64,000 nucleotides of DNA. Origin: a virus (taxonomy: Duplodnaviria; Heunggongvirae; Uroviricota; Caudoviricetes). Numbering within the stretch: the first letter of the stretch is position 1; each line of letters begins with the position of its first letter. Under the pieces are notes generated by a model. It was not told the origin of the DNA, did no database searches, and saw nothing but the letters and a program-made list of their open reading frames with translations. The position numbers and the translations under genes are program-made. Shown here in pieces: positions 3,311-27,110 of this stretch. Location of the stretch: IMG/VR virus record IMGVR_UViG_2675903433_000022; one strand, written 5' to 3'.

Positions 3311-4135
3311 ATGCCCAACCACATTACAAACGAAATCCGAGTCATAGGTGGTACAAATAAACAACGCTTAGATTTCATACGTGCCATAACTAACAAAAAA
3401 GGTCTAATTGACTTTAATACCATTTGCAGACGTCCGAAAAGTATAGAAATGGAAGAAAACAATCATATCAGGCGCATGGCCTCTGCAATGGCGGGCGAAA
3501 CAGTTTACGACTACATGTTCGGTGAATTAAAGACTCCAGAACAGGTCGAATTAGCTATGCGTGAATCAGGAATGACACGCAAGGAAATTCGCAAAATCAA
3601 AGAGCAGGCTCTTATGCGGCTTGAGAATTATCGTCGCTATGGCTATTACTCATGGTTTGACTGGTCGCGAGCTAATTGGGGAACAAAATGGAATGCCTAC
3701 AACATCGAAATGCCCGTAAAACGTATCCCTACACGTATTAAGTACGGCCATAATTTCCGCCATACACACGTTCGAGCATATGCAAAACGAATCTATAAAA
3801 AACGTCTTGCAAGACATGCCGCAACTGGTGGTGAGTTGGTGATTCGCTTTGAAACAGCCTGGTCTATGCCAAAACCAATTTATCAAGCGATGGCTAGAAA
3901 GTTCCCGCACCTTGAGTTTGTAATACGTTATGCAGACGAAGACTTCGGCAATAACTGCGGACTCGTTTTACTTCGCAACGGCAAATGGGAATATGACTAC
4001 ATTGCACCGGCGAATAACGAACAATCGTCAGAAGAAAAAATCAAATGGCGCAAGTTCGCCTTTGAGTTATGTTGTCCTGGTATCACTCCACAAGAATACG
4101 GTCTAAATGAAGAATACGAATACGCCGGATATTAA
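3311..4135 (+). CDS. hypothetical protein
   Basis: Track ORF 274 aa; preceded by an AAACAAtTTGTT palindrome; Trp-rich segment YSWFDWSRANWGTKW; no assignable function. Confidence 0.6.
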   Translation: MPNHITNEIRVIGGTNKQRLDFIRAITNKKGLIDFNTICRRPKSIEMEENNHIRRMASAMAGETVYDYMFGELKTPEQVELAMRESGMTRKEIRKIKEQALMRLENYRRYGYYSWFDWSRANWGTKWNAYNIEMPVKRIPTRIKYGHNFRHTHVRAYAKRIYKKRLARHAATGGELVIRFETAWSMPKPIYQAMARKFPHLEFVIRYADEDFGNNCGLVLLRNGKWEYDYIAPANNEQSSEEKIKWRKFAFELCCPGITPQEYGLNEEYEYAGY

Positions 4136-4168
4136 AGAATTGTCATTTGGCTTTACGCTCGAAGCATA

Positions 4169-4921
4169 GTGGTTAAGAAGATGAAAAGAAAAATTGAAGA
4201 ACCAAAAACGACACTTAATAAACATGGGGAAAAAATTCAAACACACCCAGCGTTCGGTCTTGTGAAAACAAGCCGTGTTAGCACGACTGGCATTCGTCTA
4301 TTTGATTCAGAACTGGAACATAGAGACTATATTGAAATAGGCGTTTACGAGGCTGAACTATCCTTGGATAATGAACGAACCCGGCCACAAAGGAGTAGCA
4401 ATAGACGGCCTTTAGTTGAAATTAGACTTAGCCAGGCACAATGGGCTGCTATGGTTAGCAGTTTTGGTGTGGGCGAAGGTGTGCCATGCACTATTTCATA
4501 TAAAACCATTGGCGACTCAATTAGAGTTCATGATATTGCCGAGCAAAAAAGTATTCGACAAAAATTCAACGATCAAATAAAGGCAGCTACGAATAGTGAG
4601 ATTGATCGACTTAATCAGCAAGTATCAGAGCTAGGTGAGCTTGTGAAAAAAGGAAGAGCTGGAAAACGTGACCTTGAAGAACTATATAGAAAACTTGCAT
4701 CTGCTGTAGCTAACCTTCCTGAAAATCTGTGCTTTGCTACCGAATTAATGCAGGAGCAAATGGATGAAATTGTCTCATCTGGAAAGGCGGAGATTGAGGC
4801 GTATGTTGCAGGCACTGTTATGCGTAAAGGGTTAGCAGCATTAGGCACAGAATCATGCATTAACGATGCTCCTACTGTCTCTATCACCAAAATGGAAAGC
4901 GGTAAAGAATTACTACCATAA
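4169..4921 (+). CDS. hypothetical protein (alternative ATG start at 4181)
   Basis: Track ORF 250 aa with coiled-coil-like C-terminal half. Confidence 0.55.
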   Translation: MVKKMKRKIEEPKTTLNKHGEKIQTHPAFGLVKTSRVSTTGIRLFDSELEHRDYIEIGVYEAELSLDNERTRPQRSSNRRPLVEIRLSQAQWAAMVSSFGVGEGVPCTISYKTIGDSIRVHDIAEQKSIRQKFNDQIKAATNSEIDRLNQQVSELGELVKKGRAGKRDLEELYRKLASAVANLPENLCFATELMQEQMDEIVSSGKAEIEAYVAGTVMRKGLAALGTESCINDAPTVSITKMESGKELLP

Positions 4922-4941
4922 ATGTATCTGAGGTACTGACA

Positions 4942-5331
4942 ATGCTTTTAATTCAACCTGGGTTCGGTTTAAAGATAAAAAAAGGACATATGTTCGGTTT
5001 CAAAGAATCGAAACGAAAAATTCTGTCCATTAGATTGCCATTTATCACCATTCATTGGTTAAACAGAGAGTCAACCGATTATTGGTATAAATGTGCTCTG
5101 GCCGCATTTAACGACCCTGACTGGTTTATAGAAAACCACCATGCTGTTCGTCAGGCAAAGAGAAAAGCTAATACGACATACATGAAGGCGTATCGGAAGG
5201 CATGGAAAGAACACCGCGATCGATACCAAAAAGACATGGAGAAACTTGAATTGGAAAATATGGATCTAAGAAGGAAGCTCGGTGAAGCACGGCGAGATAT
5301 TGAAGCATATAAACGTCTTGTATCGGAGTGA
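4942..5331 (+). CDS. hypothetical protein
   Basis: Track ORF 129 aa, basic, coiled-coil C-terminus. Confidence 0.5.
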   Translation: MLLIQPGFGLKIKKGHMFGFKESKRKILSIRLPFITIHWLNRESTDYWYKCALAAFNDPDWFIENHHAVRQAKRKANTTYMKAYRKAWKEHRDRYQKDMEKLELENMDLRRKLGEARRDIEAYKRLVSE

Positions 5332-25339: not shown

Positions 25340-25360
25340 TTTGTTCTGGCGTCTGTAATT

Positions 25361-25419
25361 AGCCTGCTTCTGTATATATAAATAACTACATATTAATTAT
25401 TAATATACGGAAGCAGGCT
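25361..25419. repeat. long inverted repeat (17-bp arms around an AT-rich loop), copy 1 of 2
   Basis: AGCCTGCTTCTGTATAT ... ATATACGGAAGCAGGCT with a T/G wobble position; near-identical element at ~55760-55816. Confidence 0.6.
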
Positions 25420-25524
25420 GTTTTGTATCAGAGACTCCAGACCTGAACATCACTACAGAATCCACTAGAACCCCTTCCCAGACGCTTTAAAATCGATTTT
25501 ATGAACCACTTTAAGGAAACTAAC

Positions 25525-25755
25525 ATGTCATACCCGACTAATGTCGTTGCGCTCGTAGAGAGCGATTTTCTGGCCCAGGCTCGTGAAATGATGAAAGATC
25601 GCGAGCAGGCTTTCAACTTGTACGAATGGGCAATTAAGTGCTTGCATCTTGGGGAGCATCGCGAACTTGTTGAACAGCTTTTAGGTGAGTTGATCAACGA
25701 GGTGTTTGCCTTGAATGTTCAACTACATGGTCGAGAAAATAATCAATCGAAATGA
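25525..25755 (+). CDS. hypothetical protein
   Basis: Track ORF 25501..25755; ATG 25525 preceded by AAGGAAA. Confidence 0.4.
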   Translation: MSYPTNVVALVESDFLAQAREMMKDREQAFNLYEWAIKCLHLGEHRELVEQLLGELINEVFALNVQLHGRENNQSK

Positions 25756-26339
25756 TAGATAAGTACAAACTATTCATAAGGTGAATTGTAAGTGCTAAGA
25801 TCTGATAGTTTCCAGTCGTAGACTGGAGACTCGACCTGATGGGTGGGGGTAAGCGTCACTGGCGTCAGGTTTAAAAAAGCTCACTACCAGCGTAGAACCG
25901 GTGCCGTTTAGGTGTCGGGGAAGGGGGAACCAAAGTGAGCGGAGACAAGGGTCACTTTATGATTGTCGAGTCTGGGGTGTTTCGAGAGGTTGAATCCAGT
26001 ACTCCCCTTCATAAAGTGTGGGAAGATCTCGGTTCTGGGGTGCTGTCATCCATAACTTCCCAAGTCTAAGCTGGCAGTAGACTTAGACCATAACTTTTCA
26101 GGTTATGAAACGACCAGGTTGGTGAGGGATTTTTATACTCACCTCCCTGGGAGAGTATTACCTGAAAAGACAACCTCTCACTTCGTTCGAGGTGAACTTC
26201 ACTCACTTCGTTCGTTCAGTTCAGGTTTATAAAAACCTGTTCTGGGAAGTAATTTGTTTATTTTAATAATTATTAACACGCACGCGTGTGCGCACGCGCG
26301 AGGAAAAAAATCGGCGCGGCGCTTGATTCAGGAGTTTAT

Positions 26340-26930
26340 ATGACGACGAAGACACCAGCCCGATCGCAAGCAAAAACTCGCAAAAAAGCCAAAAACAAAA
26401 ATTCTCCCCGCACCAATCCTACAACGCCTGTCGTAGAGTTCAATCCCCAGCTTAAAACCGTGAAAATCTTCAGTGATGGCTCTTGCCTTAAAAATCCGGG
26501 TGGCCCGGGCGGTTACGGTATCGTTCTTCAGTATCGTGGAGAGGAACGCGAGTTCTCAGATGGTTTTCATAGCACCACCAATAACCGCATGGAGATGATG
26601 GGGGCACTTATCGGGCTGGAGCGTTTGAAATATCCATGCAACGTTATTTTGCACTCTGATAGTCAGTATCTGAAAAACGGCATGACACAGTGGATGAAAT
26701 GGTGGAAACGCAATGGATGGATGACTTCTGACAAAAAACCGGTAAAGAATGTTGATCTGTGGAAGCGTCTGGATGAGGCCGCAAGTCGACATAATGTTCG
26801 CTGGAAGTGGGTTAAAGGTCACGCCGGGCATCGTGAAAATGAAATATGTGATCGACTCGCGAAGATCGCAGCTTTTTCAGCAGCAGATATGCCTCACAAG
26901 AAAGATATTGGTTTTGTTTATAATAAGTAG
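26340..26930 (+). CDS. rnhA: ribonuclease HI with basic N-terminal extension
   Basis: Track ORF 26286..26930, start moved to ATG 26340 after CAGGAG; [47 protein letters not shown] match the RNase HI core. Confidence 0.85.
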
Positions 26931-27031
26931 TAAGTAAGTGTTTACCTATCATTTTAAATCATGTATCTTATCGGCGTCAGGATGACAATGTGTCGGTGAG
27001 ACACAGTTCCAGGATGGAACGAGAAAGGCGG

Positions 27032-27077
27032 NNNNNNNNNNNNNNNNNNNNNNNNNNNNNNNNNNNNNNNNNNNNNN
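27032..27077. other. assembly gap (run of 46 N)
   Basis: Literal N run in the sequence. Confidence 0.99.
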
Positions 27078-27110
27078 CCGCAACTCTTTCTGACACTGGA
27101 TGGGGTCCAC

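Follow-up and report, generated by a model that had tools for sequence, protein, structure and literature searches.

The DNA analysed here is a window of 64,000 nucleotides from the IMG/VR virus record IMGVR_UViG_2675903433_000022, and the locus in question is an interval of about 580 bp (nt 25756-26339) directly upstream of the RNase HI gene rnhA. A preliminary description, drawn from the letters alone, had pointed to this interval as one free of open reading frames (ORFs) and had proposed a structured noncoding RNA or a cis-acting site. We find that it holds a promoter followed by a conserved, folded element, which we call the type A RNA. It is highly probable that the locus is a real structured noncoding RNA gene, and we hold with high confidence that this gene is independent of rnhA, possesses its own promoter, has a predicted length of ~445 nt, gives a structured and pseudoknotted product and is expressed in the plasmid state. 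Of the two possibilities raised, the structured RNA is the one favoured by transcription, covariation and conservation.

Judging from its closest relatives, the window belongs to an SSU5-type phage-plasmid: over 12 kb around the locus it shares 97-98% identity with the SSU5-like Escherichia phages CMS-2020a, PhiR41_1 and Cyrano, and ~80% with Salmonella phage SSU5. The genes on the + strand are ordered as dihydrofolate reductase, ATPase, 3'-5' exonuclease, a 269-aa protein, a Dam-type methyltransferase, a 76-aa ORF, the gap, RNase HI, small ORFs and a TerB-like/DUF3927 gene. A DNA-metabolism module (nrdAB, thyA, folA, exonuclease and Dam) surrounds the locus, and the plasmid replication gene repA is located ~18 kb from it, as checked on one relative. 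The longest ORFs inside nt 25756-26339 measure 30-46 aa, in agreement with the reported absence of frames; a 214-aa frame opening with GTG at nt 26286 is the rnhA frame extended upstream of its ATG at nt 26340. The interval contains the unit of interest but is wider than it, the unit itself consisting of a promoter (nt 25773-25801) and an RNA that would reach from ~25808 to ~26252. No transfer RNA (tRNA) had been recognised by eye, and ARAGORN finds neither a tRNA nor a transfer-messenger RNA on either strand of the 64-kb window. The supposed richness in GC is only marginal, 0.48 against 0.43-0.44 in the flanks, and the window elsewhere ranges over 0.39-0.50. An excess of G on the + strand is the clearer signal of composition, with a GC skew of +0.29 at nt 25750-26049.

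The sigma-70-like promoter lies on the + strand at nt 25773-25801, with a -35 hexamer TTCATA (nt 25773-25778), a spacer of 17 nt and a -10 hexamer TAAGAT (nt 25796-25801). In all relatives, whether they carry the type A RNA or the second class described below as type B, the two hexamers keep their position, the 17-nt spacing and their distance from the RNA body; the hexamers excepted, the 70 bp upstream of the conserved block vary freely. The hexamer pairs found among relatives are TTTAAA/TAAAAT, TTCAAA/TACAAT, TTTACG/TAGAAT, TTTACC/TAACAT and TTTACT/TATGAT. A promoter scan calls the homologous site in L254 (9/12) and in L165 (10/12; other loci are cited by such numbers throughout), and the site in the window scores 8/12, just under the cut-off of the scan. 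The transcript is predicted to start at about nt 25807-25809, which corresponds to about 78,530 in the Cyrano record OV696614.1, and would open with a hairpin at nt 25807-25831 (AGTTTCCAGTC gta GACTGGAGACT), the arms of which occupy nt 25807-25817 and 25821-25831; the core of it, TCCAGTC-gta-GACTGGA, had already been spotted by eye. The arms read CCGGA/TCCGG, GCTGGCAGAT/ATCTGCCAGC, CTTTCG/CGAAAG or GTCTGGC/GCCAGAC in relatives, the sequence being free and the pairing maintained, and the hairpin would look like a protective 5'-terminal stem-loop. No T-run accompanies it, unlike the terminator found at the same place in type B. At the other end lies an AT-rich variable spacer (nt 26253-26276, + strand) with insertions and deletions among relatives, where the RNA likely has its 3' end. 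At the homologous spot L260 has a hairpin with T6 behind it, and the RNA level in the Cyrano RNA sequencing (RNA-seq) presented below falls somewhere between nt 26069 and 26340.

The conserved body of the type A RNA extends on the + strand from CTCG to TCTGGGAAGTAA (nt 25830-26252). Its first hairpin, P1 (helix 1; nt 25833-25871; GACCTGATGGGTGG ... CCACTGGCGTCAGGTT), has 14 pairs, 8 of them compensatory, with 98% of cells paired. Downstream of it the heptamer ACCAGCG (nt 25886-25892) is unchanged in 12/12 sequences. The CCAG within this heptamer (nt 25887-25890) can pair with an equally invariant CTGG (nt 26242-26245) and so close the whole RNA (helix 2), although in the absence of variation the covariation is neutral on this pairing. 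The 5' strands of two long-range helices then lie at nt 25926-25945: GGAACC (nt 25926-25931) pairs with GGTTCT (nt 26031-26036), and GAGA (nt 25942-25945) pairs with TCTC (nt 26027-26030). These helices (3 and 4) are paired in 99% and 96% of cells, with 2 compensatory pairs each, and since both cross P4 they make a pseudoknot. Hairpin P3 (helix 5; nt 25953-26018; CACTTTATGA ... TCATAAAGTG) has 9 pairs, of which 8 are compensatory. P4 (helix 6; nt 26019-26062) joins TGGGAAG (nt 26019-26025) to CTTCCCA (nt 26056-26062); it is 100% paired with 4/7 pairs compensatory, and its loop contains the 3' strands of the pseudoknot (nt 26027-26036) together with the P4b hairpin (helix 7; nt 26038-26051), in which 3/5 pairs are compensatory. 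P5 (helix 8; nt 26064-26088; GTCTAAGCTG ... CAGTAGACTTAGAC) is a hairpin of 10 pairs, 9 compensatory, with 99% of cells paired. The P6 region (helices 9-11; nt 26089-26169) comprises the CATAAC-ttttcag-GTTATG hairpin of the preliminary description, present at nt 26089-26107, and a hairpin of CCAGGTTGGTGAG with CTCACCTCCCTGG (nt 26114-26150); 8/10 pairs of helix 11 are compensatory. An alternative outer P6 stem (nt 26094-26106 with 26157-26169) is possible in close relatives and poorly kept in divergent members. The 3' domain (nt 26174-26222) is built from two copies of CTCACTTCGTTCG, the duplicated unit seen earlier, which repeats exactly over 13 nt (nt 26177-26189 and 26202-26214), and from two short helices (12 and 13); its sequence is invariant in close relatives. 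Two other pairings were tried and rejected. A helix of CGGGGA (nt 25916-25921) with TTCCCA, given by RNAalifold, is 90% paired, fails in L252 and L254, and was replaced by P4 (100%). The pairing of GAGA with a TCTC at nt 26176 fails in divergent members, and that with the TCTC at nt 26027 is preferred.

Both strands of the element fold better than shuffled sequence, with a minimum free energy (MFE) of -201.5 kcal/mol (z = -5.85) for the + strand and -168.4 kcal/mol (z = -5.5) for the - strand. The close relatives (n=13) vary too little to be very informative on structure: 98.4% of cells are paired, with 8 compensatory pairs against 4.1 +/- 1.3 in shuffled alignments. Divergent relatives were reached by anchoring on the small upstream ORF and then running nhmmer on the gaps that follow it. 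With these included (12 sequences), RNAalifold gives 84 pairs, 49 of them compensatory, against 20.2 +/- 2.8 in shuffles, none of 500 of which reach the observed number, and 5-17 in slid controls. The revised model described above does slightly better on the same 12 sequences, with 51 of 85 pairs compensatory and 95.9% of cells paired (shuffles 20.4 +/- 2.9, 0/500 reaching it; slid controls again 5-17). Covariation also bears on the strand. G-U pairs make up 11.9% of all pair cells, and read from the opposite strand they would become A-C mismatches; where a change on one side alone leaves a pair intact, it goes to or from a G-U wobble, which is tolerated on the + strand only; and the MFE of the + strand is 33 kcal/mol below that of the - strand. 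These properties indicate that the functional strand is the + strand, the same as that of the promoter.

Expression of the element is seen in published RNA-seq of E. coli LF82 carrying the phage-plasmid Cyrano, which is 97% identical to the window here (Misson et al., PLoS Pathog 2023, PMC9928086, Table 1, S1 Table). The reads carry the GEO accession GSE154648. The Cyrano annotation places a 44-aa ORF, CYRAN_81, on the + strand at what corresponds to nt 25935-26069 of the window, and this ORF serves as the probe for the RNA. CYRAN_81 gathers 117 normalised reads, as against 8-10 for both neighbours (9.5 for the small ORF CYRAN_80 and 8.4 for RNase H) and 6.0 for the methyltransferase (PMC9928086). 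In these data it stands ~12-fold over its neighbours and the prophage median in LB, and about 6- to 40-fold over rnhA across five conditions. In 10/10 samples its log2 value is 6.8-10.35 compared with 2.6-5.8 for the two flanking genes, and the peak is reached in bacteria inside macrophages at 6 h (PMC9928086). High counts over CYRAN_81 and low counts over the flanking genes establish that lysogens contain a discrete, abundant RNA, which spans the middle of the element at the least and drops in level before rnhA. The same data set holds another gene of interest elsewhere on the phage-plasmid. CYRAN_43, a 'hypothetical protein' of Cyrano (OV696614.1), is 723-fold over the prophage background and far above everything else on the element (PMC9928086); either a further wrongly annotated RNA or a small gene of very high expression could lie behind this value.

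In three relatives of the Klebsiella/Enterobacter type the block is 92-96% identical to the window at the DNA level, compared with 75-80% for the small ORF, rnhA and the methyltransferase (Dam) gene. The block is sharply bounded at ~25830-26252, with variable sequence (nt 25760-25829) on its 5' side and the AT-rich indel spacer on its 3' side, and conservation peaks inside the RNA rather than at its 3' end. That a noncoding block exceeds its coding neighbours in conservation, position by position, points to a function in which the sequence itself is read. The element is present in 687 PLSDB plasmids from Klebsiella, Escherichia, Enterobacter, Salmonella (including Typhi pHCM2), Citrobacter and Cronobacter, 677 of which are typed as non-mobilizable. 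Among the plasmid matches listed, almost all are of ~100-120 kb, the shortest being 49 and 66 kb, with no small replicon built on the element. It also occurs in 232 of 5,426 complete E. coli genomes (4.3%), where the RefSeq annotation shows nothing. The type A profile (nhmmer) recovers L256 at 397 bits, L250, L257, L258 and L260 at 166-181, L254 at 70 and L252 at 11. In L252, the very divergent type A RNA is followed at ~3320-3500 by a recurrence of the promoter block (GGTAAGTGTTTACTTATT...), as also in L253, and then by a GC-rich, hairpin-rich stretch (GGTTGGTTTTCAACC, GCGGCTGGCTTTTGCCAGCCGC) that may be a second small RNA or a leader. A degenerate motif scan of IMG/VR (GGTGGNGG...CNYTGG...ACCAGCG) returned at least 120 chance matches, none recognised by the type A or type B profiles, and a scan of genome contigs seeded with the RNase HI protein was dominated by chromosomal rnhA genes and returned no phage-plasmid.

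The 44-aa frame is not a conserved coding frame; reading it as a protein was rejected because 1- or 2-nt indels break it in 4/13 representatives. A scan of the window against Rfam 15 (4,227 models), as the preliminary description had suggested, gives no match at gathering score, and at E <= 10 only chance matches of the eukaryotic microRNA type and the like, each at half its gathering score or less. The locus thus shows the generic marks of a structured noncoding RNA, namely compensatory pairs beyond the controls, no conserved frame and transcription as a discrete unit. We found no description of the type A RNA in the searchable literature, where it has left no trace other than an entry as a 'hypothetical protein' moron. 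Large orphan structured RNAs borne by mobile elements are known as a kind; the family, its pseudoknotted fold and the slot shared by two classes appear to be undescribed.

The small ORF that always precedes the RNA locus (nt 25525-25755, + strand) encodes a 76-aa protein of phrog_5343 (E = 5.8e-53), a family of unknown function. Each of the 80 IMG/VR loci that encode it (80/80) has a type A or a type B RNA just downstream. When 5.8 billion proteins were searched with its profile, 57 clusters emerged, and all of the species-named ones belong to Enterobacteriaceae; in each genomic context fetched, the ORF is followed by a gene-free gap of 520-800 bp. The AlphaFold model of the protein is a three-helix bundle with a predicted local distance difference test (pLDDT) score of 81.8, for which Foldseek finds no significant fold match in the PDB, Rop included. 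Searches of the neighbouring proteins against Pfam and PHROG assign a function to RNase H only. Between the methyltransferase gene and the small ORF lies a near-perfect, long, AT-rich inverted repeat (nt 25340-25446; TAGCCTGCTTCTGTATAT ... ATATACGGAAGCAGGCT), which is the source of the spurious microRNA-type Rfam matches and could be a terminator or a regulatory hairpin.

On the other side, rnhA (nt 26340-26930, + strand) encodes an RNase HI of 196 aa (Pfam RNase_H over residues 40-178, E = 9.8e-45) and lies beside the RNA without forming part of it. Its 5' untranslated region contains an alternating CA/CG tract followed by a GC hairpin with an A-rich loop (nt 26277-26325, + strand; helices 17 and 18), the hairpin sitting directly before the ribosome-binding site. 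The alternating tract CACGCGTGTGCGCACGCGCG is found as first described, at about nt 26277-26299. Being Z-DNA-prone and polymorphic in length (~10 nt are deleted in L040, and it is shorter in L069 than in the near-identical L068), it behaves like a microsatellite. The region also contains the widely conserved GCGCGAGG (nt 26296-26303): GCGCGAG is retained in L250, L258, L260 and L254, and GCGCGAG(G/A) is conserved 30-50 nt 3' of the RNA regardless of the next gene. The RNase HI itself has a Lys/Arg-rich N-terminal extension of ~38 aa (nt 26340-26455), similar to the basic tail of the RNase HI linked to type B (MAKKPTKQKGIKYNRQK...), and this tail may bind nucleic acid. A run of N (nt ~27030-27080), masked or unresolved, interrupts the gap between rnhA and the next gene and appears as runs of X in the ORF translations.

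The placement upstream of rnhA, to which the preliminary description drew attention, is real as an adjacency, but the link is positional only, for the RNA is kept where rnhA has been replaced. In 11/80 of the small-ORF loci rnhA is absent or replaced and the RNA is intact. In L210 the start codon and a few codons of rnhA remain, followed by unrelated genes of 222 and 315 aa (3495-5107), and in L208 an IS3-type transposase takes the position of rnhA (3558-4678). The divergent type A copies L250, L251, L257 and L258 are followed either directly by a Tad2-like gene, the product of which belongs to the anti-Thoeris family, or by a gene for a 200-aa protein of unknown function and then the Tad2-like gene. 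In the other direction, rnhA in distant phages (L074-L081) is not preceded by any comparable gap, and the RNA as a general companion of phage RNase H was rejected on that ground. A riboswitch or an rnhA-specific 5' leader was likewise rejected, given the 11/80 loci from which rnhA has gone and the type B loci L165, L168 and L169, where the next gene is on the opposite strand. Since the RNA is retained with such varied next genes, the position after it behaves as a variable gene slot, the RNA and the small ORF being the constant parts of the locus, and its adjacency to rnhA does not reflect functional coupling in cis.

A second class of RNA, type B, occupies the same position in 30 Klebsiella phage-plasmids, which have the same synteny (exonuclease, methyltransferase, small ORF, gap, rnhA) and a gap of the same size with a wholly different sequence. 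Its folding z is -6.8, and 12/131 pairs are compensatory among 7 sequences, or 23/134 with one divergent member added. The promoter block is conserved as TTTAC(T/A)-17-TAT(C/G)AT, and no similarity to type A beyond this block was found by blastn, nhmmer or reciprocal profiles, nor did an architecture common to both classes emerge. Rfam gives no match to type B at gathering score and only chance matches at E <= 10. The next gene is rnhA or, in the three loci just named, a gene of opposite strand. In L261 a small ORF of the type A kind (70% identity) stands beside an RNA of the type B kind, a mixed pairing which suggests that the RNA module is exchanged by recombination.

The explanation that we consider best as a whole is an autonomous gene for a structured RNA of ~445 nt with a role in lifestyle control, to which we assign a probability of roughly 0.55. 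The functional half of it, that a stable RNA expressed in lysogeny controls the phage-plasmid's own lifestyle, is put forward tentatively. The host RNA polymerase would initiate at ~25808 from the sigma-70-type promoter, and the transcript, beginning with the protective 5' hairpin, would fold into P1-P6 and the 3' domain, the pseudoknot locking the G-rich 5' strand (nt 25926-25945) into the P4 loop. Transcription would end, or the transcript would be trimmed, in the AT-rich spacer before rnhA, so that lysogens would accumulate the RNA and show little more than background from the genes flanking it. By itself or together with a protein, the RNA could then act in immunity, in maintenance or in silencing of the early or accessory operon that follows. 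It would thereby parallel, at a much larger size, the processed leader RNAs c4 of P1, CI of P4 and CA of N15, and type B would be an allelic specificity variant. An Ant or Rha antirepressor gene does lie a few genes downstream in SSU5 and some of its relatives.

Several observations weigh against this explanation. A search of the remaining 63 kb of the window for stretches complementary to the RNA gave nothing beyond 12 nt, ~45 kb of the 110-kb replicon lying outside the window, so that no target for an antisense mechanism of the c4 or CI kind is seen there; the best complementary matches are of 11-12 nt (E >= 1.6), at chance level, and none is near the locus. In size the RNA exceeds c4, CI and CA five- to sixfold, and no antirepressor is seen among the ORFs just downstream in the window, which is the E. 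coli version. The terminator scan of the window detects no canonical terminator behind the RNA. Type B has a canonical intrinsic terminator (GGGCTACCAATGGTAGCCC plus a T-run) between the -10 hexamer and the RNA body (L163, 3390-3420; L165, 644-662), and its hairpin shows compensatory changes in relatives; this terminator may insulate the RNA gene from upstream transcription and be truncated in transcripts started at the promoter. Lastly, the Cyrano reads were counted per annotated gene, and the strand and the ends of the RNA given here come from the sequence.

Another view of the function, also tentative, takes the locus as a fixed 'RNA slot' behind the small ORF that harbours at least two unrelated classes of large RNA (~430-450 nt). 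Both classes would be made in the plasmid state. Together they would make up a novel class of large functional RNA, working as a machine of RNA only or of ribonucleoprotein (RNP), or else determining the specificity of immunity or incompatibility. To our knowledge, bacterial RNAs of more than 400 nt with pseudoknots supported by covariation are rare. Such large pseudoknotted RNAs of bacteria have repeatedly proved to be ribozymes or unusual assemblies, and comparable size and complexity of fold are otherwise met mainly in ribozymes and RNP scaffolds.

A cis-acting leader or attenuator of the following operon (rnhA and the accessory or early genes) is an unlikely alternative with several points in its favour. 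Transcription from a constitutive promoter would stop in the lysogen, or the transcript be cleaved, after the folded leader, and a phage factor would give read-through on induction. Promoter, RNA and downstream genes are indeed all on the + strand in the window, the RNA signal drops 6- to 40-fold from the element to rnhA, a GC hairpin directly precedes the rnhA ribosome-binding site, and RNAs encoded in leaders are employed in this way by P1, P4 and N15. However, the gene to be led into is inconstant, being RNase HI, the 200-aa protein, a Tad2-like gene, the 222/315-aa pair or an insertion sequence (IS) element. A pure leader or attenuator role is contradicted by L165, L168 and L169 of type B, where the next gene is of opposite strand and the intact RNA has nothing to lead into. 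A fold of ~445 nt with a pseudoknot also far exceeds the needs of known attenuators, and the scan detected no terminator in the window.

We regard it as improbable that the RNA is a host-directed or anti-defence 'moron', made in the lysogen to act on the host or on competing elements, for instance as a sponge or decoy that engages host proteins or defence systems, rather than to regulate the phage-plasmid itself. Its expression peak inside macrophages would suit such a product, as would the neighbours of counter-defence type (Dam upstream, the Tad2-like gene in the downstream variable slot) and the presence of two unrelated RNA classes at one locus, which is typical of arms-race loci. Yet a type A or type B RNA in 80/80 loci and in all divergent relatives is the behaviour of a core gene rather than an accessory one. 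Rfam shows no similarity to a host RNA family or a known decoy, and the small ORF is the only fixed partner gene adjacent.

Somewhat less probable still is a replication primer or R-loop origin, comparable to ColE1 RNA II and the origins of T4 and T7, in which a persistent RNA-DNA hybrid near the 3' end of the RNA would be trimmed by the RNase HI of the adjacent gene and prime DNA synthesis. A structured sigma-70 transcript of ~450-500 nt beside an RNase HI gene in a DNA-metabolism module recalls such a system; the non-template strand is G-rich, as the GC skew shows, an AT-rich stretch follows directly 3' of the RNA, and the RNA is expressed in the plasmid state, with Cyrano at 5.5 copies per cell (PMC9928086). 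Against it stand the RepA-type replicon ~18 kb away and the plasmids listed, almost all of ~100-120 kb and none a small replicon built on the element. The locus has no switch of GC skew, and the promoter scan finds no antisense, RNA I-like promoter inside the element; the sole promoter-like site of the - strand nearby (nt 25814 to 25785) is in the promoter/5'-hairpin region and directed away from the RNA body. The RNA persists where rnhA is lost, and its 3' flank, the expected site of the RNA-to-DNA transition, is replaced as well in the type B loci without rnhA and by the IS insertion of L208. Conservation is highest inside the RNA instead of at that end. Finally, it is very improbable that the locus acts as a DNA site (pac, partition, recombination, or hairpins like ssi and Frpo) or encodes a small protein and that folded RNA plays no part: hairpin covariation by itself does not discriminate between RNA and single-stranded DNA, either strand folds better than its shuffles do and one genome annotates the 44-aa protein, but the G-U cells fit the + strand only, a conserved double-strand promoter lies just upstream, the RNA is abundant, the fold has a long-range pseudoknot, the 44-aa frame is broken in 4/13 representatives, and a conjugative leading-region role is inapplicable to plasmids of which 677/687 are non-mobilizable.

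SSU5-like phage-plasmids are common in clinical Enterobacteriaceae and can carry resistance genes, and pHCM2 of Salmonella Typhi is included in the same family. The type A RNA is a concrete candidate regulator, being unannotated, strongly conserved, expressed in lysogens and more so inside macrophages, and the occurrence of two unrelated classes at its locus amounts to a natural swap. Annotation pipelines leave the locus blank or call a spurious 44-aa protein, and a covariance model would correct hundreds of records.

Among known systems, Frpo and ssi likewise consist of a highly structured noncoding sequence, some hundreds of bases long, that precedes early or counter-defence genes on plasmids. 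They act as folded single-stranded DNA in conjugation, from which the present element differs in the non-mobilizable typing of nearly all its plasmids, its double-strand promoter, its many G-U pairs and its expression in lysogens. ColE1 RNA II, of ~500 nt, shares with type A a plasmid-borne, sigma-70-driven folded transcript and a connection to RNase H, the RNase HI gene being adjacent here. It differs in that no antisense promoter was found within the type A element, the RepA replicon is elsewhere, no small autonomous replicon is among the plasmids listed, and the element persists without rnhA and, in some loci, without its original 3' flank; nor does the neighbouring helical protein of 76 aa bear a significant structural match to Rop or to others. 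GOLLD, ROOL and OLE resemble type A in their length of several hundred nt, their many covarying helices with a pseudoknot, their link to mobile elements and their unknown function. Unlike these RNAs of Firmicutes and other groups, type A belongs to phage-plasmids of Enterobacteriaceae, has no resemblance to the 4,227 models of Rfam at a threshold as lax as E <= 10, is always found behind one small ORF and has no tRNA genes adjacent.

The overall pattern most resembles that of c4 (P1/P7), CI (P4) and CA (N15). These are stable, folded RNAs of ~70-80 nt from plasmid-prophages, made from a promoter active in lysogeny at the 5' end of a gene block that is silent in the lysogen. They act by short complementarity to sites in their own transcript and come in allelic specificity types, as in P1 versus P7. 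Type A departs from them in its ~445 nt and its pseudoknot, in having no complementary target found in the window, and in an E. coli version without a recognisable antirepressor gene directly downstream. It agrees with them in being expressed in lysogens while the downstream genes are at background, in the Ant or Rha-type gene a few genes downstream in SSU5 and some relatives, and in the two non-homologous RNA classes that alternate at a single locus much as the allelic types of those RNAs do.

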